Origin: Vulcanimicrobiota bacterium
GTDB taxonomy: Bacteria > Vulcanimicrobiota > Vulcanimicrobiia > Vulcanimicrobiales > Vulcanimicrobiaceae
NCBI GenBank assembly: GCA_963795855.1
Contig: CAWCIZ010000002.1
Coordinates: forward strand, 544,001-608,000
Length of the DNA stretch: 64,000 bases
Direction: 5' to 3'
Under the pieces are notes generated by a model. The model searched no databases, was not told where the DNA came from, and was given only the letters and a program-made list of their open reading frames with translations. The translations under genes and the position numbers were made by a program. This document shows positions 12,999 to 33,189 of this stretch, in pieces (within the stretch, counting starts at the first letter, position 1; each line of letters opens with the position of its first letter).

Positions 12999-15400
12999 AT
13001 GAGTTTGCGGGTGTTCCGTCGAGCGTTCCTCGCCATCGTTATCGCGCTGCTTCCCGTTGCCGCGCTCGCGCAAAGCCAGGAAAATGCGACCATCGTCATT
13101 CGCGTAACGGATGCGACGACGGGCAAGCCCATCGACAACGCGCAAGTCTACTTGCTGGGCGGCGACACGCCGGAGAATTCGCTGACGAACGCGCACGGCG
13201 TCCTGATTTTCGACGTTCCGCCGGCGCTCTATCACGTCCAAGTCAAAGCGCCCGGATACGCCGACAGCAATTCCGCCGAAGTGGATGCGGGCGAAGGACA
13301 GCACTTGGCGGTCGTCGTCAAGATGAGCCTGCGCATCATCGCAGACGTCGTGACGCACCCAAGCATCAGCGTTTCATCGGTGAACGTGGGCGAAGACGGC
13401 GCGCAGCGCAAGGTGTCGCAGTCACTTTCCGACGCATTGAACAAAATCGCCGGCGTGACCGTGGACGACCAACTCTACGGGGACAACTCGGCGTTCAACA
13501 TTTCGCTGCACGGCGCGGACGCATCGCAGACCGCGTACTCGATCGACGGCGTGCACATCGGCGGTGCGGGCGCGCAAGCCGTGAGCGGCCTGCAGGATCT
13601 GTTCAGCGGCAGTTCCATCAATTTTTCTCCGAGCGCCATCAGTACCGCGGGCAGCGTCAACTTCTACACCGCGCAGCCGACGAAGACTGTGGAGTTATCG
13701 CTTCACCGGGACCGTCGGAAACTACGGCAATACGCTCGGTACGTGGCTAGCAACCGGCGGCGGCGGTCGGTTCGCGTTCGCATTCGAGCACACGGGCGGC
13801 GGGCAAGATTATCCGCTCGACGGGCACTTTTTTGCCGATGAATCCGGTTCCGCGTACGTGCATCAGGGCGGTTTCGCTCGAAATGCAAACATGATGAAGG
13901 TCGCGGCCACGCTTTCGCCGGTCTCAACGCTCAAGTACACGCTGATTGGCGGGACGAACGACAACGCGTACATCTGCGCGAGTCAAACGACGCTGCTTCC
14001 GTGCGGACTCGGCCCCGATAGCGGTTCGCATAGTTCCGATATCGTTCAGACGCTCGGGTTCTCGTCTTTAGCCGGAGACACGCAATACAACCTGTTCGCG
14101 AACTACGGAAAGTTTCAGAATGTGCAGCGCCAGCCGTATCGCGCCGTAAACGGATCGCTCAGTCCGTACGAAGCATCGGATTCCTTTCCATGGTTTAATT
14201 CCGGCGCGTACTTGAGTTCGAGCGCGCGCCGGCATACGCTCTCCGGCGGATACTACGGTTCGCTGGATACGAGCACGTATACGTCGACGTACAACGCGGC
14301 ACAAACGCTTACCAGTTCGCGCTCCGAACGGTTCGGAAGCGCCTGGGTGAGCGACAAAGTCAAATCGAACGACAAACTCGCGCTCACCCACACGATCTCG
14401 CAAGCGGGCGGGACGGGAGTGGGAAGTTCGTTCGAACTCGACGAGGACGTGACGTGGCAGCCGCGCACGGCCGACGTCTTCAGCGCCGATCTGGGTATCG
14501 GCAGCAGCGAGCCGGCGAGCGCATTTACCGGCACGCTGGGCGACCCGCTCAGCGCGGATTTCGATTGCTACAACCAGTCGGCGTTCCTGCAAGGCCCGAG
14601 CGATCAGCCCGCGCACGAATCCTCGACGCAATACAGTTTGGGATGGCGTCACACGTGGAAGGACGGCTTCGTCGACGTGAACGCTTATCGCAACGGGTTC
14701 CTCGGTCAAACCGCGCGCGTGGCCGTTCCCTTCGCAGCCGAACCGGCTTCGCTATTTCCGAACGGACCGAATGCGTATCTGCAGCAACTGCAAGCGATCT
14801 GGTCTCAACCGACCGAATGCGGCAGCATGCCCTTCGATCCGTCGCGCGTGTACGTCGATCAGCTTGCGACGAACATCGGACAGGTACAGCAAGGATTTAC
14901 GGTGAGCGCGCAGATTCCGCATGGGCCGGTACGTTTTGCTGTATCCGAATTACGCTACGACCAACTCGTATTTTTCAACGCTCGATCCGCGGCTCTCGGC
15001 GACCGGAAGCCTGTACGCCGCGGGCGCGCAGTTGCCGCATCATCCGCTTCACACGGCCGGGCTAATCGTGGACGGAGTCATTCCACATTCCTCGCTCGAA
15101 TGGTTGGCCGACGCGCAGTTCACGTCTGCAAATAATCCGCAGAATCTTCCCGGTTACACGACCTACAGCGCCGGCCTGGTCGTTCACGCGCTGCGCGGCT
15201 CCCTCGAAATACTCGAGAGCAACATCTTCGGGAATCACACCGGTCTGTTCACGACGTATCAGGGCGTCAATCCGCTCGCGGTGCAAGGCGGCGGCACGTT
15301 TGCGTATGCGACGACGCCCCTAGCCCCGCGCACGTTCACCGTGGAATACGACGTACGCTGGCATCAGCACGAGAAAGCGAAGTCGCCCGTCAAGCACTGA
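12999..15400 (+). CDS. TonB-dependent receptor-like outer-membrane protein, two frameshifts (~13686, ~14920)
   Basis: Signal peptide, carboxypeptidase-regulatory-like domain, plug (LSDALNKIAGV...ISLHG...YSIDGV), beta-strand-rich C-terminus ending PRTFTVEYDVRW. Confidence 0.75.
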
Positions 15401-17812: not shown

Positions 17813-19700
17813 ATGAATTCGCGCGTCCGCGTTTTGGTCGCGGGATTGACGTGCGTCTTTTTGCTGGCCGTACCGCCCCGTCCAGCTCCGGCGCTCCCGC
17901 ATGCCGTGAGTACCGCGCCGTGCGGCGCGCCTCTCCCAGGGGGACAGGCTTGCGAATCCTCCGCAAGTCGAAGTCGGTACGCTTCCGCTGGACGATCGCG
18001 GCCGGCACGAACTGATTCTGCGCGTGGCGCGGGACCACGATCGCTTCTGCTTCCGCTATATGCTGAACGGTGTCGCGCAGGATAGCGCGCCCATTTTACG
18101 CGCGCATCGGGGCGAGCGCTTCGCGCTCCGCATCGTCAACGAGTTGCGCGGGCCCGCAAGCGGCGCCACGCTGCCCGCGAGCGCTCTCGCTCCGTGCAGC
18201 CCGCGCTCTATGCCGGCGATGATGCCCAAGCAGTACGCCGGCTATCTGAACCACACCATTCGCTCGCGCGCGATGCCCATGCCGGATACGGACGTAAATC
18301 TGCACCTCCACGGTTTCGAGGGGCCGGCGGCGCAAGAGAACGTATTTCTGTCGACGCTCAGCACGCCGATGCACGCGTGCGAGTACGACATTACGATCCC
18401 GGCTACGCAGCCGCCCGGAACGTATTTTTATCATCCCCACGCGCACGGCATGGCGGGAGACGAAGTAGGCGGCGGACTTGCCGGAATGTGGATTGTCGAT
18501 CCCGACTCGCCGCAAATTTCCTCTGAGGACGAGCATCCGATAATCTTGCAATATCGCGTGCCGTATGTGAACGACAACAATTTTCTTCCCGCCACCGGCG
18601 CGCTCGGTAGTGCAGCCCTAGCGCACGAAGCGACGTTGCGTCCAGCCGCACGCGTCTCGTACAATCCATTCGATCCGCCGCCCTGGCCATCGTCATTTCC
18701 GGTGCGTTCCGGCACCGAATCACTCGTGGGCTTTTGCGGAAACCGGAGCGGCACGCTGCTTGCCGTAAACGGCGTCGACGCGCCGGCGCGGCTGACTGTA
18801 CCAGCGGGTCGACCGCAACTCCTCCGACTGCTCAACGCCACATCGGACAGCGTCGAATTTCTCCACGTCAAGGATGCCGCGGGACGCATGCAGACGCTGC
18901 ACGTCGTCGGCCGCGACGGGGTGCCGGTCGGTGGCGACGACGCGCATCCGCTTTCCCGCTATATCGCGATGCGCGAAATGGAACTGGTTCCGACGGGTCG
19001 CGTGGACGTATTGCTGACCCTCAAAGCGGGGGATGTCCTCACGCTCTACGGCGATCATCACTGCATCGCGCCGCTCGACGAATTCCACGTCAGTCACGAC
19101 GTCCTCAAAATCATCGCCGGTCCCGCCGTCGCGAACCCGGCGACGATCGCATCCGCGCCGTTGCAACCGGCTGAATCACCCGCGCTTGCGCTGCTGCAGT
19201 TCGCGCGTGAGAATCCGAGCGCGGTTCGCCGGCGAGCCATCACCTATACCGAATACGCGATTCCGAACGCGAGCGGCCACGGCGGTCATGCGGAATATTA
19301 CATCACCGAAACGAGCGTTCGAAATTTCCACGAGCATCCGTACTGGCCGCAATACCGCAAAGGCGCCGTGGTTCCGCAGCCCGACATCGTGGTGAAGCAA
19401 GGAACGATTGAGGAATGGTATCTTTTCAACGCGACGCTGGAGGAGCACTCGTTCCACATCCATCAGATGGCGTTCGTCGCGGAAGACGCCGCGCCCGGGC
19501 CGGCGACGGTCGATACCGTACTCGTTCCAGTGGGCCGCTTACTGCCGAATAAGGCCAATCCCGATTATCCGTTGATAAAGCCGTCCGTCACACACGTGCT
19601 GCTGGATTTTCGCCACGTCCCTCGCGGAACGTTCCTCTTCCACTGTCACATGCTGTTCCACGAAGATCGCGGAATGATGGCCGTGATTCGCGTCGAGTAA
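17813..19700 (+). CDS. Multicopper oxidase, frameshifted near 17948
   Basis: Signal peptide; NLHLHG, YFYHPHAHG, HSFHIHQ, HCHMLFHEDRGMM copper motifs; TATACT 6 nt before ATG. Confidence 0.9.
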
Positions 19701-19704
19701 CCGC

Positions 19705-20949
19705 TTAGGCTACCGCGCCGCGATCCGCGCTCTCGGACGATGCAAGTTGCAGCGCGAAGCCTTCCTGAATGAGTTTGCGCACGACTTTGAGCGCATGCTC
19801 GTCCTTTGCGATAAGCGACGCCAGCTCCACGGAAGGCTTGGCTTCGAGTTCCCGAACGATGGACGCGGCATTCTTGCCGAACGTGAGGTTTTTTCCGGAA
19901 AACGCAATCTTGGTGCTTTGTTCGCCTTCGGTCATCTCGTAGAGCATGTTGGCACGCATCGCCACGACTGAATGTTCGTTCAGTTGCGGTAAATCGGCGA
20001 TTTGACGCATCTGCCCGTCTAAGCCGTTCGGACGCTCTTTGAAGAACGAGGACACGGCAGCGTCGAACGCGCCGTGGAGTCGTTCGGACGAGAACACGCT
20101 TTGCAAAACGGCGGCAAACTCCGGGTCCGCCAAGTCGTTGAAGTCGACGGTTCCGCGAAGACGCGGCTCCGCTTCCGCCGCCTTGGCGACTGCGTCGGCG
20201 AGAACGTGATACCACTTGTGCGGATAAAGGCCCAGAGTCACGTGCAGCGAGAGTTCTTCGTTCGCCTTGCCTTCGTGCAAGAATCCGCGCGGAATGTAAA
20301 GCAGGTCGCCCGGCTGCATCTCGATTTCGAGCTGCACGTCGCCGACCGCGTGGAGTTTTTTGTCGAAGAACCGGTCCTCGAGCGGCAGCTGCGAGGGCGC
20401 ATCGTAGACGCGCCAATGCTTGGAACCTTCAATCTGAATGATGATCGTGTCGTGCGTGTCATAGTGCATCGCGAAGCCCTGGTTGCCCGGGGGCGTCATG
20501 TAGACGTTGGCATTTACGCGATGCCGGAAGAACGACTCCATTTCGCGGCAGAGCGTCGCGATGGGCGGGGACATCTTTCCGACGGCATCGAGCACTAACG
20601 AGCAGCCGCCGCTGAACAGCGAACTGACGCGGTCGGGATCGATCAGATCGTATGACGGGGCTTTGCGGTTCTTGGGATCGGATTTGTTCACTTGCGCGTA
20701 CGTATCGATGCGCGCGGAAACACCGTCTTTGACGAGGCCGAGATCCTTGGCACGCACGATGCTGCCGTACAGGATTCGCTCGTACTCCTGCAGCGTGAAA
20801 TAGCGATCGTACCGGTTCGGCTCGTTCCGCGAAATGTGCAGCGGCGCGCGTTCGTAATAGCGCTGCCGGAAATCGTCCAGCGAATGCGGCGCGAGCAGCC
20901 ACGTCAGAACGGCGCGGTCGCGTGCGTTAGAACTCCACATAGTGCTCAT
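19705..20949 (-). CDS. JmjC/cupin_4 Fe(II)/2-oxoglutarate oxygenase (ROXA/NO66-like)
   Basis: NVYMTPPGNQGFAMHYDTHD (HxD), QIEGSKHW, PGDLLYIPRGFLH, SLHVTLG; C-terminal winged-helix-like end (VRKLIQEG). Confidence 0.9.
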   Translation of the reverse strand: MSTMWSSNARDRAVLTWLLAPHSLDDFRQRYYERAPLHISRNEPNRYDRYFTLQEYERILYGSIVRAKDLGLVKDGVSARIDTYAQVNKSDPKNRKAPSYDLIDPDRVSSLFSGGCSLVLDAVGKMSPPIATLCREMESFFRHRVNANVYMTPPGNQGFAMHYDTHDTIIIQIEGSKHWRVYDAPSQLPLEDRFFDKKLHAVGDVQLEIEMQPGDLLYIPRGFLHEGKANEELSLHVTLGLYPHKWYHVLADAVAKAAEAEPRLRGTVDFNDLADPEFAAVLQSVFSSERLHGAFDAAVSSFFKERPNGLDGQMRQIADLPQLNEHSVVAMRANMLYEMTEGEQSTKIAFSGKNLTFGKNAASIVRELEAKPSVELASLIAKDEHALKVVRKLIQEGFALQLASSESADRGAVA

Positions 20950-21103: not shown

Positions 21104-21274
21104 CTAGTAGTCGCCGTCCGGGAACACGGACTTCGGTCCGCCGAAGTCGCAGTGTGCGGAGTCATCTCCGAAGCCGGAGTTCGGGCTGCACGGGCTCGAT
21201 GCGAAACCCGTCGCTTCGCTCATGAGCGTGCTCATGTGATACGAAGTGACGATGTCAGGCTTGATATAGTCCAT
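21104..21274 (-). CDS. Putative RiPP precursor peptide, 56 aa
   Basis: Manual translation MDYIKPDIVTSYHMSTLMSEATGFASSPCSPNSGFGDDSAHCDFGGPKSVFPDGDY*; CAGGAG SD 6 nt upstream; GC3-rich codons; own terminator; below the ORF-track cutoff. Confidence 0.8.
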   Translation of the reverse strand: MDYIKPDIVTSYHMSTLMSEATGFASSPCSPNSGFGDDSAHCDFGGPKSVFPDGDY

Positions 21275-21327
21275 TACAATCTCCTGGCGTAAGCATGCCG
21301 AGAAGTAGCCTTCACGGTCATATCGCT

Positions 21328-21477: not shown

Positions 21478-22647
21478 TCACGCCGCGACCGTACTGAAGA
21501 GCGGGCGGAACAGATCGAGGGTGTGAAGCCTGTGCCAATCGCGCCGTAACTCGGCCGACGTGGGCGCGCCTTCACCGCGGAGTGCCGGGCCTAAGAGCAG
21601 TGAAGGCCGCGTAATCGATGTTCCGAGATTGTGACGTGCAGCGAGCTCGTCGACCAAACCCAGCAATTTCGTCAGCGGCTCTTCCTGCGGGAACCGGCGC
21701 CGAATCAGGTCCTCAATCACCGTGCGGTCGGGTGCGCGAAGAAGCATAGCCAGCAGCAGACGCATTTCCGGCTGCTTCATGCTCTTCATCAGGCGGGTTA
21801 TCAGACGCTCGCGGTGCATTTCGCGGAACGCGCCGGCCGCCGTGCCGGCCAAGCGCGCATGCCGCCGCCGCAGCAAGGCCTGCAATTCGAGCGTTATCGC
21901 GGAGTGCAGTTCTTCGCTTGCCGCGACGCGGCAAGCCTGGTACGAATGCCACCAGTCGCCGCTTGCGACCGCCTTACGCGCGAGATCGGCGAAGAGGTAC
22001 GGGTGCGAGCGATACAGCGTGCGCATCAGTTGCAGGCGCCGCTGCGCCACGATGTCGCGCTCGACGGGGTCCCACGCCAGCCCGGGAGCGACGTAATTGA
22101 ACTGCGGCAGATGCGCGGGCTCGCTGTTGGTCCGAATTACGATGCTGACCGAAGGCGAATTCAAATGCAGCAACGCATGGATGAACGCGCCGCCGGCGTG
22201 GATGGACCGAAAGTCTCCGCGTCCGAGCACTTCCGCCGAGTCGAAGCGCAGGTCGCCGATGCAGAGTTCGCGGCAGAGCCGCTCCTCCGGCGCGAACGCG
22301 TACGTGCTGTGGAAGCTCGACCCGTGCAGTACCCCGAATACGCCTGAAAACGAGTGGTGGTGAATCGTCGTCGGCGAGTCCACCCAAAACAGGATCTCGA
22401 TGTAGAACCCGCGGCCGACATATGCGCGGATTGGGGGCTGGCCGAACTTACTCAATTTCTGGTCCGGAAGATCGAGAGCAGTCATGAACCATTCGACGAC
22501 GTCTTCGAACCGCACGCGATCGAAAACGCCGGAGTCGCCGAGCGCGTTCGTGGCGATCTCCGGAAAGGCCGCCGGATCGCAGTCTGCACCATCCCAGCGC
22601 GACTGAATCTGCTCGCCGAGCTTTTGAAAGAGCTGCATTGCCTCCAT
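21478..22647 (-). CDS. His-triad cupin (cysteine-dioxygenase-like fold) with helical C-terminal extension
   Basis: IEILFWVDSPTTIHHHSFSGVFGVLHG...FIHALLHLNSPSVSIVIR resembles the CDO pattern W-x5-6-IHxH...H. TACGCT 6 nt before ATG. Confidence 0.65.
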   Translation of the reverse strand: MEAMQLFQKLGEQIQSRWDGADCDPAAFPEIATNALGDSGVFDRVRFEDVVEWFMTALDLPDQKLSKFGQPPIRAYVGRGFYIEILFWVDSPTTIHHHSFSGVFGVLHGSSFHSTYAFAPEERLCRELCIGDLRFDSAEVLGRGDFRSIHAGGAFIHALLHLNSPSVSIVIRTNSEPAHLPQFNYVAPGLAWDPVERDIVAQRRLQLMRTLYRSHPYLFADLARKAVASGDWWHSYQACRVAASEELHSAITLELQALLRRRHARLAGTAAGAFREMHRERLITRLMKSMKQPEMRLLLAMLLRAPDRTVIEDLIRRRFPQEEPLTKLLGLVDELAARHNLGTSITRPSLLLGPALRGEGAPTSAELRRDWHRLHTLDLFRPLFSTVAA

Positions 22648-22773: not shown

Positions 22774-23421
22774 ATGGAACCGGACTGGCTTGCATGGCAC
22801 CGCGAGTATCGCGATCCCTCGACGAAACTTTCGGAGCGCCTGCAAATCGTGCAGCAGCGCATTCGCGAGACGGTCGACGCCGCGCAATCGCCGCAAATTC
22901 GCATCATCAGCATTTGTGCGGGACAGGGGCACGACGTCCTCGGCGCGCTCGCCGAGCATCCTCGCGCCGATGCGGTTCGAGCACGCCTGGTCGAGATCGA
23001 TTCGCGCAGCGTCGAGATGGGCCGCGTGGCGGCGGAGACGCTGCAACTGCCGGGCGTGGAATTCATCTGCGGCGATGCTTCGGTTACCGATGCGTACGCG
23101 GGCGCCGTTCCGGCGCAACTGGTCGTGTGCTGCGGCGTGTTCGGGAACATCTCGCTGGACGACGTGCGCCGGGCCATCCTGCATTTTCCGCAGCTTTGCG
23201 CGCAAGACGGTATCGTGATTTGGACGCGGCATCGTCGCGATCCCGACGTCACGCCGGAGATTCGGCAGCTCTTCACCGGCAACGGATTCAGCGAAGTCTC
23301 GTACGACGAAACGGAACGGTTCGGCGTCGGCGTCGAACGGCTGACCGATTCGCCGCAGCCGTTCAAAGCGGGGCAGCGTCTCTTTCAGTTCGGCAGCGGG
23401 CTTTGGGCCAATCGCGCGTAA
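22774..23421 (+). CDS. Class I SAM-dependent methyltransferase
   Basis: IISICAGQGHD (motif I), LVEID, GDA, CGVFGNI. Confidence 0.8.
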   Translation: MEPDWLAWHREYRDPSTKLSERLQIVQQRIRETVDAAQSPQIRIISICAGQGHDVLGALAEHPRADAVRARLVEIDSRSVEMGRVAAETLQLPGVEFICGDASVTDAYAGAVPAQLVVCCGVFGNISLDDVRRAILHFPQLCAQDGIVIWTRHRRDPDVTPEIRQLFTGNGFSEVSYDETERFGVGVERLTDSPQPFKAGQRLFQFGSGLWANRA

Positions 23422-24314
23422 GCGAGATGTGCGAATCCGTATTCCTCACGTGAAATGCGGGCGGCGTGCAGGCTAGCGCGATCGGACGAACGGGTGAAGA
23501 TGCTTGCGCCGGTCGGATCTTTCGAATAGCGCGAAAAACACCGTTCGACTTCTTCTCGGTCGACGTCTTCGGGGGCGATGCCGAGTTTCGGCAATAACTC
23601 GAAGACCGCGGCCGGATTCAGCGTGTCATAGTCGATGCAGAGCGTGCCGGGCGTGCTCATGGCGGCGGTACATTGCCACTCGAACACATCCGACCAGAAC
23701 CGGCTCGGCGAGGGATTCCAGCGCTCGGGTTTGCTCATGAGCCGGCGCATCAGCGGCACGCAGGCCGCGCGCGCCTCTTCGGAAACCTCGGCGAGTTTCG
23801 AGCCGATCACCGCTTGCGGATCGCGATAGAGAAATACGAATTGCGCGCTCGGGAATATGCCGCGCAAGGCCGGCAGAAACATCGACGCGAGATTCATGAA
23901 CTTGACGAACAGATACCGCTTCGGTGGCCCGTTCGCCGCGCAGGCGTTAATCGCGCCTCGCAACAGTTCCGCGTCGATGGGCGGCGCTAGCGCCTGCTCC
24001 AGCCGCGTCAGGGGCGGTTCCGCGAGCACCATCGCTTGCGAGACCGCTTTGAGCGCGTTCGCAAGCAGCGTCGAACCGCAATGGGAGACGTGAAAGACGA
24101 ACGTCAGCGGCACGTGCGGCGATAGTTGCGCGAAGCGGCGCAACGCGTCCCCATCAGTGACCAGTTCTTCGCAGCCGCTCTCGCTCAGCCGAGCCAAGGT
24201 TTGCCAGAAGAACGGTTCCGGCACGTCGATGTGCGGGAAACGCATCCACGTCACGCGCCGGCGCGGTCTGGCTCCGTCGATCCAGACGGGAACGAACTCC
24301 CGCGGAACGTTCAC
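23385..24314 (-). CDS. Sulfotransferase-like P-loop protein (paralog 2)
   Basis: FVFHVSHCGSTLL (5'-PSB-like) and FLYRDPQAVIGS (3'-PB-like); GTGA-coupled to paralog 1. Confidence 0.75.
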   Translation of the reverse strand: MNVPREFVPVWIDGARPRRRVTWMRFPHIDVPEPFFWQTLARLSESGCEELVTDGDALRRFAQLSPHVPLTFVFHVSHCGSTLLANALKAVSQAMVLAEPPLTRLEQALAPPIDAELLRGAINACAANGPPKRYLFVKFMNLASMFLPALRGIFPSAQFVFLYRDPQAVIGSKLAEVSEEARAACVPLMRRLMSKPERWNPSPSRFWSDVFEWQCTAAMSTPGTLCIDYDTLNPAAVFELLPKLGIAPEDVDREEVERCFSRYSKDPTGASIFTRSSDRASLHAARISREEYGFAHLAYARLAQSPLPN

Positions 24315-25288
24315 GCCCGCTGCAGTTCCCTCGAGAGCGCGTCGATGCGAGAATACGCGGCTTGCGCAGCTTCATCACGCCGCGTTGCGTCGTGCGATTC
24401 CGAGCCGAACTGCCGCGCTCCGGGGACGTCTTTGGAGTACCAGCGGAACGCTTCGCGCATCAGCGTGGCGTTGAGGTCATCTTCACGAACGCCCGCGAGC
24501 GCGAGCAGTTCGACCGCGCGTTCCGGCGTGAGATCGCGATAATTCGCGCACACCACGTCGCGCGTCAACATCGCCGCCGTGCATTCGGCTTCGAACACGG
24601 TGGACCAGCATTGCGCCGCCGAAGGATTCCAATCGTCGGGTTTGCCGAGCGCGTAGCGGATGAGCGGCATGCGCGATTGGCGCACGGCCTCGCTGACCGC
24701 ATCCTGCAGTTTCGGAATCACTTCCGCGGGATCGCGATAGAGAAAAAGAAACGGACTGTCCGGGAACAGCTCGCGAAACCGCAGCAAAAACAGGCTGGCG
24801 AGATTCATGAGTTTGATGAAGACGTAGCGCTTTGGCGGGCCGCCGTTTGCGAGCGAATTCACGGCCCCGCGAATGAGCGCGCCATGCAGATCTTCGCTGA
24901 ACGGTACGCCGGTTTGCGGGTCGCGCAAGCGCCGCAGCAACTGGCGCGGACCCAGTATCGGCGGCTCGGAAATGACGCGCGCGCCGCTTACGGTTTTGCA
25001 GGCGTTCGCGAAGAGCGTCGACCCGCAGTGCGAAACGTGAAAGATGAACGCAACCGGTGCCGCGGCGGTTTGGATGCCGCACCGCGCGAGGACGTCCGCA
25101 TCGGTGAACCGTTCGGGCTCGCTCGTGCTGATGCGCTCGATGGTTTGGCGGAACGAGGGTTCTGCGGTGCTGAAGGTGTCGTAGGGAAGCCAGCCGACCC
25201 GCAGTTGCGGGCCGTGGCGGAGAAATGATGACGCAAAACAGTCACGCATATACAAGTCGAGCATACTAGGCGGCGCGAAGGGCGTCAC
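24311..25288 (-). CDS. Sulfotransferase-like P-loop protein (paralog 1)
   Basis: FIFHVSHCGSTLF and FLYRDPAEVI. Start uncertain (25288, 25264 or 25249). Confidence 0.75.
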   Translation of the reverse strand: MTPFAPPSMLDLYMRDCFASSFLRHGPQLRVGWLPYDTFSTAEPSFRQTIERISTSEPERFTDADVLARCGIQTAAAPVAFIFHVSHCGSTLFANACKTVSGARVISEPPILGPRQLLRRLRDPQTGVPFSEDLHGALIRGAVNSLANGGPPKRYVFIKLMNLASLFLLRFRELFPDSPFLFLYRDPAEVIPKLQDAVSEAVRQSRMPLIRYALGKPDDWNPSAAQCWSTVFEAECTAAMLTRDVVCANYRDLTPERAVELLALAGVREDDLNATLMREAFRWYSKDVPGARQFGSESHDATRRDEAAQAAYSRIDALSRELQRA

Positions 25289-25310: not shown

Positions 25311-26921
25311 ATGAGCAGAGCGCACTATACCGTGCGGCCGGGCGGTGTCCGGCGCGGCGGGTGTTCCGGCGCGTGGACGGCGAAGAGACGCACCATACGC
25401 CGTTATTTTGCGCTCGTCACGATCCTGCTGCTCGCGGCAGCGTTGCGCTGCTATCATCTCGCGAGCGTGCCGACCGAACTGATCGTCGACGAGATCGACT
25501 TGTACAACTCGGTGAGCAGCATCGTTGCGACGGGGCACGACGTGGACGGTACGCTGCAGCCGTTCCTGTACTCGCAGTTTACGCGAAATCCGCCCGTGTA
25601 TGGTATCGCGTCTTACGCTTCGAGCCGCGTGCTCGGCAAGAACGCGTTCGGACTTCGCTTCCCGGCGGTGCTGTTCGGGCTTGCTGCGATCGTCTTCGTC
25701 TTTTTGCTCGTCCAGGAGATAACCCGGCGAGACGCCGTGGCGCTGCTGGCGGCGCTGTTCGTCGCGGTTGCGCCGATCTTCGTCCAATTCTCGCGCATCG
25801 GCTGGGAACCGGCCGCGGAGCTGCCGTTTCTGCTTGCCGGGTTGTATCTGCTTATGCGCGGCATTCGGCTTTCCGGGTCGAACTACGCGTTCTCCGCTAT
25901 AGCGTTGGCGATCGCGTGCTATACGTACATGACGGGGTGGTTTTACGCCGTCATTCTCGCGGGCAGCGCGCTGGCGATTCACTGGAAGAGCTTTCGTTCG
26001 TGGAAGTCCGCGCAGCCGCTACTCGGCGCGCTGGTGCTTTGGGCCGCACTTGCGGCGCCGGCGCTGTGGATGTGTTTTTTCGATCCGCTGACGGCGTCAA
26101 AGGTCTCGCGCGTATCGACGTTCTCGCACGGCGTAACGTTGGATGCACTTAAGGTCTTCATGCACAACTATGCAGCGCACTTTAGTCTTTCGTACCTCGT
26201 CGTCAACGGTGCGGCTGAGGCCGGTTCGACGTGGCGATATTTGAACGGGTTCGGTGCGTTTTATTGGTGGATTATTCCGCTTGCGGCCGCCGGGCTCGTC
26301 GCGACCTGGAGCGGTGCGTTTGACAAGCGCGTTCGCGCGTGGCTGATCGTATGGCTGCTCGCATATCCGCTTGCCGGCGCAGTGACGAACGACGGCGTGC
26401 CGAATGCGCCGCGAACGCTCGCCGGCGCTCCCGTCTTCTGTATCTTTGCCGCAATCGGCGCGTTCGATCTATACGCGTGGATTTCTACGTCCGTCGCGAA
26501 GTCGCGCCGAGTCTTGCAAATCGTTGGAGCCGCCGTACTGCTCCTGTCCGTGTTTCGGTTTTCGGCCAACTATTTCGTTTACTACGTGCACCGCAATTCA
26601 AACGCATGGGACTCGGGCACGCGCTCGATGTTCGCCGCGATCGAACGTTACCGCAGCCGTTACGAACGCGTGTGCATCTCCGTGTGGCCGGCGTGGTACG
26701 GAATCGAGTCCTACTTGCGGTTTTACATGCCGGGCGACGATGGCGTCATCACCTCGATTTCTGCGCCGGCGTGTTATTTGCCGGGGACGCTGCTGGTGAC
26801 GGACAACGATCAGCACGTTTCCCGGCATGGCTTTACGCCGCTGACCACGATTCGGGACGTAAACGGGGCAGGTTTTGCGCATATCAGCGGGCGTTCAGTC
26901 GAGTTTGCGCAGCACCGCTGA
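25311..26921 (+). CDS. ArnT/PMT-like (GT-C fold) membrane glycosyltransferase
   Basis: LRCYHLASVP...DE, FGLRFPAVLFG, FSRIGWE; many TM segments. Confidence 0.8.
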   Translation: MSRAHYTVRPGGVRRGGCSGAWTAKRRTIRRYFALVTILLLAAALRCYHLASVPTELIVDEIDLYNSVSSIVATGHDVDGTLQPFLYSQFTRNPPVYGIASYASSRVLGKNAFGLRFPAVLFGLAAIVFVFLLVQEITRRDAVALLAALFVAVAPIFVQFSRIGWEPAAELPFLLAGLYLLMRGIRLSGSNYAFSAIALAIACYTYMTGWFYAVILAGSALAIHWKSFRSWKSAQPLLGALVLWAALAAPALWMCFFDPLTASKVSRVSTFSHGVTLDALKVFMHNYAAHFSLSYLVVNGAAEAGSTWRYLNGFGAFYWWIIPLAAAGLVATWSGAFDKRVRAWLIVWLLAYPLAGAVTNDGVPNAPRTLAGAPVFCIFAAIGAFDLYAWISTSVAKSRRVLQIVGAAVLLLSVFRFSANYFVYYVHRNSNAWDSGTRSMFAAIERYRSRYERVCISVWPAWYGIESYLRFYMPGDDGVITSISAPACYLPGTLLVTDNDQHVSRHGFTPLTTIRDVNGAGFAHISGRSVEFAQHR

Positions 26922-31946: not shown

Positions 31947-33189
31947 ATGAGTACTCCGGTTCCGGTTAACATCGGCAACACCGCATTCATGCTCATCTGT
32001 GCGAGCCTCGTCATGCTCATGACGCCGGGGCTCGCGTTTTTTTACGGGGGCCTGGTCGGCCGTAAAAACGTGCTGACGATCATGATTCAGAGACTTCATG
32101 TCGCTCGGATGGACGACGGTCGTCTGGGTCGCAGTCGGCTATTCGATGTGCTTCGGCAACGACTGGCACGGCGTCATCGGCAATCCGGCGCAATACTTCT
32201 TCCTGCGCGGCGTAACGCTGCACACGATGTTCATGGGCAACGACGCCGGCATTCCGCTGGTCGTGCACATCGCCTATCAGATGATGTTCGCCATCATCAC
32301 GCCGGCGCTCATCACCGGTGCGTTCGCAAACCGCGTCACGTTCAAAGCATACTTTCTCTTTCTTACCGGCTGGCTGCTGTTCGTCTATTTCCCGTTCGTC
32401 CACATGATCTGGAGCCCGGACGGCGCGCTCGCGAAATGGGGCGTACTCGATTTCGCGGGCGGCATTGTGGTGCATGCGTCCGCGGGGTTCGCGGCACTTG
32501 CTTCGGTGCTGTTCATCGGGCGGCGCTACGTGATCGAAAACAAGCCGCATAACGTTCCGCTGATCGCGCTCGGCACCGGTTTGCTGTGGTTCGGCTGGTA
32601 CGGATTCAACGCCGGCTCGGAGCTGCGCGTCGACGCCGTTACTGCGTCGGCATTTTTGAACACCGACGTTGCGGCATCGTTTGCGGCCGTTGCGTGGCTT
32701 CTGATCGAATGGGCGCGCGGCAGACAACCGAAATTCGTCGGCTTGCTGACCGGCGCCGTTGCGGGGCTTGCAACGATTACTCCGGCGGCGGGGTACGTTT
32801 CACCGGTTGCCGCGATTTTGTTCGGTCTGCTGGCCGGCGCGGTGTGCTACTATGCGGTCGCGCTGAAAAACCGGCTTGGCTGGGACGACGCGCTGGACGT
32901 CTGGGGCGTGCACGGCGTCGGCGGCGTGCTGGGCATCACGCTGCTCGGCATCTTTGCTACGAAACTGTGGAACCCGGCCGGCGCGAACGGTTTGCTGTTC
33001 GGCGGCGCGTCGTTCTTCGGCAAGCAAGTCGCCGCTGCAGTATTTTGCAGTGCGTGGGCCTTCGCGTTTACGTACGGAATGCTCTGGCTCATCAGCCGCG
33101 TCACGCTGACCAAAGTACCGCGCGATGCCGAAGAGCGCGGATTGGACATCGAACTGCACGGCGAGGAAGCCTACCCGCTCGGCATCTGA
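31947..33189 (+). CDS. amtB: Ammonium transporter, frameshifted near 32093
   Basis: LVMLMTPGLAFFYGG, DFAGGIVVH, LLWFGWYGFNAGS, DDALDVWGVHGVGG. Confidence 0.93.

Follow-up and report, generated by a model that had tools for sequence, protein, structure and literature searches.

What does a short open reading frame in a probable Candidatus Eremiobacterota genome encode, and which enzymes act on its product? The stretch analyzed here, referred to as the window, comprises 64,000 nucleotides (C2:544001-608000 of genome G000, which is 86% complete), and the original prediction read one 56-aa frame within it as an unannotated RiPP precursor with a leader and a core. The features behind that reading (Cys29 and Cys42, five Asp, four Phe at positions 24, 35, 44, and 51, a terminal GDY, and an AGGAG) are all present:

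21104..21274, minus strand: precursor peptide gene, 56 aa, supported by the coding test, a called gene, and family members
21282..21286, minus strand: Shine-Dalgarno sequence AGGAG, 7 bases 5′ of the ATG

A hexamer model trained on the host's own genome scores the precursor frame at +0.39 and the other five frames at -0.16 to -1.33, and each of five paralogs in the same genome likewise scores highest in its own frame. Relative to four homologs, the leader codons differ mostly at third positions (7/7/15 against the closest paralog). The exact 56-aa protein is present as a called gene (P0004) in the protein collection, so that "unannotated" holds with respect to Pfam and NCBIfam, neither of which matches the precursor (NCBIfam also matches none of 54 relatives), and fails with respect to gene calling. 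Searches of the precursor profile and of the RRE against PDB sequences give no meaningful match, a hairpin 3′ of the stop codon does not rise above shuffled sequences (z -1.25), and a promoter scan finds nothing directly upstream of the gene on the minus strand. Because paralogs and orthologs exist, the frame is not a chance occurrence, and together with a fixed leader and a variable core they make it almost certainly a genuine gene for a RiPP precursor.

The family to which this peptide belongs is characterized by a fixed leader (YxxP, A/G/V-x-G, F-x-S) and a hypervariable, Asp-rich core with nearly always two Cys (132 Asp versus 9 Glu across the precursor cores). Y3, P6, Y12, L17, and G23 are invariant in 13 aligned precursors. 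Signal peptidases favor small residues before the cut, and on this basis, ahead of the comparison with LPPs given below, the leader/core boundary was placed after A/G/V-x-G. A cut between Gly23 and Phe24, which is probable, therefore makes the invariant Ser26 the third residue of the core:

21206..21274, minus strand: leader, residues 1-23, with YxxP at residues 3-6 (21257-21268), ending in A-T-G
21107..21205, minus strand: predicted 33-aa core with Phe24, Ser26, Cys29/Cys42, and Asp55-Tyr56, its cut and modifications being predictions
21197-21199, minus strand: Ser26, i.e., core Ser3, the predicted phospho-acceptor

Precursors are sparsely distributed. Among 401 genomes from the phylum, the profile detects them at E<1e-5 in 8, two of which had seeded it, and in none of seven genomes of the host's own genus; a search of all 348 family genomes adds no carrier to the six known ones apart from one weak match. 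One carrier, G289, is unpublished, and without it the counts become seven genomes rather than eight, 11 peptides rather than 13, and three rather than four carriers of the kinase described below. Searching 1.84 billion representative sequences returns 53 matches, two of which are false or fused. In 48 of the 53, the distance between YxxP and the Gly that precedes [FY]-x-S is exactly 21 residues, with Ala, Gly, or Val at position -3, and YxxPx[ILV] is present in 50. The profile itself contains the Gly, Phe, and Ser positions, so their conservation among these matches is in part circular. This applies to the 43 library cores dissimilar to the profile's training set (hereafter new cores), which have Ser at core position 3 in every case (given the predicted Gly23 cut and at a position that the profile holds) and Phe at core position 1 in 40 cases. 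It does not apply to the cysteines, whose spacing varies from 3 to 19: exactly two occur in 37 of the 43 new cores, where 11.1 would be expected and at most 26 were reached in 200,000 simulations.

These data sustain much of the original prediction, including a conserved leader before a variable core, the existence of paralogs (five in G000, with about 50 further library precursors), a leader/core boundary now supported at Gly23/Phe24, and a probable disulfide, the last on the strength of the two-Cys excess. The reading of YxxP as an RRE-type motif also gains support from the arrangement of the paralogs, of which two precede further JmjC genes, two stand in tandem directly 5′ of a PqqD/RRE gene, and one lies beside a GNAT-like gene. 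Orphan precursors with the same leader occur directly 5′ of GNAT-like genes in two genomes (G000 C3:683652-683825, equivalent to L009:8653-8826, and L079:5281-5433) and represent a second kind of satellite, with a near-identical core in the metagenome protein P0006. Short frames with a similar leader and no processing genes within ~5 kb (L087, L089, L090, and L085, from G021, G075, G088, and G289) are either further orphan precursors or weak false matches.

The leader motif would also suit a lasso peptide precursor, and Asp or Glu does occur at core positions 7-9 in 34 of 51 sequences; the window core, however, has neither residue there, and Thr at position -2 is found in 3 of 51, the window peptide among them. 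The lasso machinery is likewise missing from the places searched: the B2 protease (PF13471) was not found in G000 (86% complete), G207, G048, G253, or G062 and lies on another contig in G379, no cyclase is present among the scanned neighbors, and the PF00733 matches of G000 are far from every precursor. A lasso product is thus disfavored and highly improbable. A transglutaminase-like protease and a PqqD gene 3 kb apart in G379 (C30:13391-16843) probably represent a genuine lasso cluster; it would coexist there with the LPP-like system described below, as in Bacillota.

The constant partner of the precursor, which the original prediction overlooked along with the invariant core Ser3 and an LPP-like kinase/peptidase locus, is an oxygenase:

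19705..20949, minus strand: JmjC (ROX/NO66-like) Fe/2OG oxygenase, PF08007 at 102.6 bits, directly downstream of the precursor

Residues His162-Asp164-His225 and Lys177 of this protein are intact, its nearest solved structures are NO66/MINA (the top PDB matches), and its C-terminus is a winged helix of the ROXA type that could serve the protein as an internal RRE. PMC12710340 notes fusions of JmjC domains to an RRE-like fold as well as bacterial homologs whose surroundings are RiPP-like. At E<1e-100, the oxygenase is found in the same 8 of 401 genomes as the precursor, with a precursor directly 5′ in each, and in none of six sampled genomes of the same genus. More distant JmjC proteins occur in fifty further genomes of the phylum, and no leader match was found at any of 21 checked loci that encode them. 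The metagenome matches listed, all distant homologs (24-36% identity), serve as a negative control, and none of 80 such loci has a leader match. A quick tree groups all 13 JmjC proteins encoded at precursor loci in a single clade, apart from 42 others (SH-aLRT 99); an indirect sign of the same pairing is that 8 of 26 precursor clusters looked up are on a contig equal in length to one with a close JmjC.

Automatic annotation names close homologs "ribosomal protein L16 Arg81 hydroxylase," and genes for ribosomal proteins are found close to one paralogous locus, which would suit a housekeeping ribosomal-protein hydroxylase beside an incidental short frame. Up to four copies per genome, restriction to 8 of 401 genomes, an invariable position beside a precursor, and a separate clade refute that explanation, which retains a negligible probability. 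That the oxygenase instead modifies the precursor is quite likely. Its target can be guessed as Asp/Asn or Phe1; apart from Phe1 and Ser3, no conserved core position points to a substrate residue. Precursors linked to an RRE in G050 and G295, genomes without the close JmjC clade, keep A-x-G followed by x-x-S and lack the Phe. This pattern is suggestive of a tie between core Phe1 and the JmjC clade and serves as a lead only, because it rests on one verified JmjC-less genus. The same two precursors (L088:7584-7745 in G050 and L086:6868-7023 in G295) are RRE/kinase-linked and have cores ending in His-Gly repeats, which are possibly metal-binding. Convergent with the JmjC gene in the window, a multicopper oxidase gene (18024-19700, plus strand) ends four bases from the JmjC stop codon.

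A second set of enzymes is encoded on the same contig, 444 kb from the window locus. There, within polysaccharide genes (G000 C2:119.9-124.5 kb), lies an RRE-kinase-signal peptidase-NTP transferase-ABC block in which the genes after two tandem paralogs of the precursor encode the RRE, a kinase resembling HprK, and a Ser/His/Asp peptidase, while those on the 5′ side of the paralogs encode an exporter of the ABC-2 type, an NTP_transf_5 protein, and a regulator of the LuxR type. The discrete RRE (C2:121207-121404) matches PF05402 above cut-off and sits directly behind the two paralogs; the window locus has none. Two HprK-like kinase genes match TIGR04352 below cut-off (E 3e-9 and 1e-18). The archaeal-type signal peptidase (C2:119935-120321) has Ser23, His59, and Asp74 and is 53% identical to a G379 protein with a match to PF00717 and a below-cut-off one to TIGR02228. 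The NTP transferase matches PF14907 at 163 bits, with Poly_export, Wzy_C, and glycosyltransferases around it, and the transporter consists of an ABC ATPase and an ABC-2 membrane protein.

The same block is found in G253, G379, G289, G061, and G062, and in G048 the RRE, precursor, JmjC, and two kinases are contiguous. A single cluster in G253 unites four JmjC, two precursors, a sulfotransferase, polysaccharide genes, the block, and a cupin. Overall, the RRE and kinase block is held by 7 of 8 carrier genomes, and, of 301 family genomes, 4 encode the close kinase (E<1e-50), each of them a carrier of JmjC-linked precursors; G016 has one weak extra match.

This combination recalls the linear polyphosphorylated peptides (LPPs), whose capsule loci encode an RRE, a kinase resembling HprK, an archaeal-type signal peptidase, an NTP transferase, and a transporter like MsbA (Popov et al. 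2026, PMC13381572). According to that study, LPPs are confined to Bacillota, and it assigns them neither a final structure nor a function; leader cleavage is RRE-dependent, and LppA is polyphosphorylated at core Ser3. On this basis, the window frame is read, with slightly better than even confidence, as the precursor of an LPP-like RiPP at a satellite locus that is served by an LPP-type hub elsewhere on the chromosome. Since the kinase and peptidase lie 444 kb away, we infer their action on the window precursor in trans, and phosphorylation of Ser26 by this route is somewhat favored over its absence.

Two other arrangements of the same parts merit consideration. One is a stand-alone pathway in which a class-defining JmjC oxygenase reads the leader through its own winged helix, without a kinase or dedicated peptidase, the leader being a matter of descent from LPP-like precursors. 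It draws on the RRE-like fold reported for such fusions (PMC12710340), on bare precursor-JmjC pairs in G061, G062, and G379 C22, and on G207 (93% complete), where JmjC and three precursors are present and the RRE, peptidase, and close kinase were not found. G207, though, is assembled in 90 contigs, so the block possibly went unassembled, the 7 of 8 genomes noted above hold RRE and kinase, and Ser3 and the A-x-G site are kept in the satellites; this pathway is therefore considered unlikely. The other retains the machinery and moves the cut to Ser26, with F-x-S as the counterpart of F-E-T in LppA, where Phe(-3) fits a hydrophobic cleft of LppS and Thr(-1) is at the active site (PMC13381572). The core would then start at Ser27 with no conserved phospho-acceptor. 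Phe at the matching place in 40 of 43 new cores speaks for this register, and against it speak the Phe-less RRE-linked precursors of G050 and G295, which belong to one genus, and the kinase, which would be left without a conserved target. It too is given a low probability, and the Gly23 cut within an LPP-like pathway remains the preferred reading.

Upstream of the precursor lie two genes that may bear on its terminal tyrosine:

23385..24314, minus strand: sulfotransferase-like protein 1, 309 aa, PF13469 at 27.5 bits (cut-off 27)
24311..25288, minus strand: sulfotransferase-like protein 2, 325 aa, sharing 42% identity with protein 1, PF13469 below cut-off

The stop codon of the second overlaps the start of the first. 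A structural model of protein 1 (pLDDT 76) retrieves tyrosylprotein sulfotransferases at all of fold ranks 1-11 (E 4e-7 to 3e-5, TM 0.40-0.46). Glu99 and Lys138 are invariant in 12 sulfotransferase sequences, and their alignment to the TPST1 residues is exact or off by one column. The Arg of the 5′-PSB motif, on the other hand, is His in 7 of 7 close enzymes (His78 in protein 1) and Arg in five distant ones; loss of this Arg is described as abolishing SslST activity and lowering that of TPST2. The close clade occurs in 2 of 401 genomes, both times at precursor loci.

Tyr beside Asp in the last two residues is found in 3 of 3 peptides at sulfotransferase loci (two genomes) versus 1 of 10 at other JmjC loci, an association (Fisher p 0.014 by peptide and 0.036 by genome) that was drawn post hoc from two genomes. 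Tyr lies within the last three residues of 4 of 13 peptides at JmjC loci and of 2 of 43 new cores. Both sulfotransferase carriers have a CysD-like gene and one for APS kinase, apparently split in the G000 assembly, and the two genes occur together in none of three other genomes tested. A 93,941-base contig that resembles the G253 cluster seems to contain a third such set, with one peptide ending in Tyr-Asp and another with Tyr six residues from the end.

These observations leave sulfation of Tyr56 as a tentative prediction. It is improbable that sulfation is the defining step and the product a sulfotyrosine peptide like RaxX or plant PSY, along the lines of the original prediction. Such a product is favored by the fold of the neighboring enzyme, the confinement of its clade to precursor loci, the terminal Asp/Tyr association, and the CysD-like and APS-kinase genes. 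Against it stand the post hoc nature of that association, the rarity of a terminal Tyr in the new cores, the His for Arg in every close enzyme, the opposite-strand gene between the sulfotransferases and the precursor in the window, and the apparent split of the PAPS genes in G000; the acceptor could instead be a phospho- or hydroxy-residue. Sulfation would be a local add-on rather than the trait that defines the family, and nothing connects the peptide to RaxX or to mimicry of plant PSY/PSK. According to PMC11143521, bacterial RiPPs seldom carry sulfated Tyr.

Between the sulfotransferases and the precursor are two further genes:

21478..22647, minus strand: 389-aa protein, thiol-dioxygenase-like three-His cupin (His96, His98, His157) with a helical C-terminal half
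22774..23421, plus strand: methyltransferase-like gene, between the sulfotransferases and the cupin

The 389-aa protein matches nothing in Pfam, NCBIfam, or PDB sequences. Its fold matches are headed by ten cysteine/thiol dioxygenases, based on a low-confidence model (pLDDT 54) built on four sequences. A genome scan with the cupin alignment yields 80 loci, 77 of them outside Eremiobacterota and mostly in Verrucomicrobiota, and the three His are invariant in 41 aligned proteins (from the 80 fetched loci and the host's own copies). The best scan matches are loci with the same clusters. At the 77 outside loci there is no match to the precursor, JmjC, or sulfotransferase and, barring overlapping frames, no neighbor common to more than 10 loci; a further copy in a carrier genome (L171) also has no precursor alongside. 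Because these 77 foreign loci lack peptide-pathway context, the cupin is not RiPP-specific. It represents a widespread family without a Pfam model (L174-L250).

The methyltransferase-like gene has no homolog in 25 other fetched regions searched and is probably outside the pathway. Because it intervenes on the opposite strand, a single operon from JmjC to the sulfotransferases is not established. PMT_2-type membrane glycosyltransferase genes lie beside three JmjC/cupin loci (window 25311-26921, plus strand; G000 C1:245068-246530; L072:14846-16399); the copy at G000 C1 and that of G253 are 45% alike, the one in the window being distant, and further tailoring by them is possible. Elsewhere in the window, a TonB-dependent-receptor-like gene (12999-15400, plus strand) runs across three frames, with CarboxypepD_reg and Plug in the first piece, and a gene at 31947-33189 (plus strand), which we take to be ammonium-transporter-like, begins in one frame and continues in another. 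The split TonB-receptor, JmjC-paralog, and PAPS genes suggest indel errors of the assembly rather than true pseudogenes.

The pathway that emerges may be outlined as follows: (i) the YxxP leader would be bound by the discrete RRE or, alternatively, by the winged helix of the JmjC, (ii) the JmjC would hydroxylate the core, with Asp/Asn or the conserved Phe1 as the likeliest residue, (iii) the HprK-like kinase would phosphorylate Ser26 (core Ser3) in trans, (iv) the archaeal-type signal peptidase would cut the leader after Ala-Thr-Gly23, (v) a Cys29-Cys42 disulfide would close a 12-residue loop, (vi) at the window locus only, the TPST-like enzymes may sulfate Tyr56 and the cupin may oxidize a thiol, and (vii) an ABC-2 system would export the product, a strongly anionic looped peptide. 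Its role, read from gene neighborhood alone, could be that of a strain-specific signal or of a tag tied to capsule or matrix production, a tentative assignment that is preferred to plant-hormone mimicry because of the hypervariable cores, patchy distribution, LuxR-type regulators, and polysaccharide context. In its fullest form, the proposal envisages for Candidatus Eremiobacterota a RiPP system built of modules: a central LPP-like hub would serve scattered precursors, each satellite would have a leader-reading JmjC, and the window product would combine phosphoserine, sulfotyrosine (made by the His-for-Arg clade), hydroxylation of one residue, and, at its cysteines, disulfide formation or else oxidation by the first peptide-acting bacterial thiol dioxygenase of a RiPP pathway. 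This complete version is a doubtful one.

A peptide bearing phosphate as well as sulfate would be out of the ordinary, and because each group adds ~80 Da, the two are easily misassigned. The LPP-like processing logic would extend beyond Bacillota to another phylum. The short, disulfide-looped cores are easy to make and analyze, ~50 natural precursor sequences with a fixed leader are supplied, and three enzyme groups are offered for study: a JmjC clade possibly with its own RRE, a His-for-Arg sulfotransferase clade, and a cupin family without a Pfam model.

Searches on this enzyme combination in bioRxiv and in the openly licensed part of PubMed Central turned up no account of the family, although RRE-mining data sets (e.g., PMC12710340) may list its loci. 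The main text of the LPP paper mentions no JmjC, cupin, sulfotransferase, disulfide, or member of this phylum; its supplements place Sulfotransfer_3 beside 1 of 126 peptidases and include Cupin_4 once in a domain list (PMC13381572). The family thus appears to be a previously undescribed, LPP-like one, with tailoring by JmjC, cupin, and sulfotransferases predicted from sequence.

Several known systems share individual parts with it. JmjC enzymes are described as hydroxylating RiPP precursors in the curacozole (CzlI) and biphenomycin (BipG) pathways, and, compared by description, these Fe/2OG enzymes (Phe to Tyr for CzlI, γ-hydroxy-Orn for BipG) likewise act on a RiPP precursor. Their part there is an auxiliary one, in pathways of the YcaO or MNIO/radical SAM kind, whereas here the JmjC is the constant and often sole neighbor of the precursor. 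RaxX/RaxST and SslST resemble the window locus in placing a TPST-like sulfotransferase beside a Tyr-bearing peptide, and SslST is described as preferring thioether- or disulfide-cyclized peptides. The present locus differs in the His that replaces an essential Arg and in a Tyr that is not family-wide; neither LanM nor a peptidase-containing transporter of the RaxB type was found among the 13 window proteins scanned. The phosphorylated lasso peptides (paeninodin, pseudomycoidin, and Bsf) share the RRE, the HprK-like kinase, and the nucleotidyltransferase; BsfK is described as phosphorylating core Ser3, and some Firmicute lasso clusters as carrying a putative sulfotransferase. The B2 protease, macrolactam cyclase, and Thr at -2 that accompany them are not features of this family.

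The closest overall resemblance is to the LPPs. Shared with them are an RRE encoded as a separate protein, a kinase resembling HprK, an archaeal-type signal peptidase with Ser/His/Asp, an NTP transferase, an ABC exporter, and a polysaccharide locus as well as a YxxPx[VIL] leader, a conserved core Ser3, the absence of a lasso cyclase, and a patchy distribution. In contrast, the leader departs from the YxxPxVLxHQxIxFETxxS consensus after YxxPxV and has a Tyr-to-Ser distance five residues longer, the residue at -3 is small rather than the Phe of LppA, and the transporter is of the ABC-2 rather than the MsbA-like type. This system also belongs to another phylum, its cores have two Cys, and its satellite precursors are accompanied by JmjC, thiol-dioxygenase-like, and sulfotransferase genes. 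Because the leader consensus and the transporter type fail to agree, the family is designated LPP-like rather than LPP.
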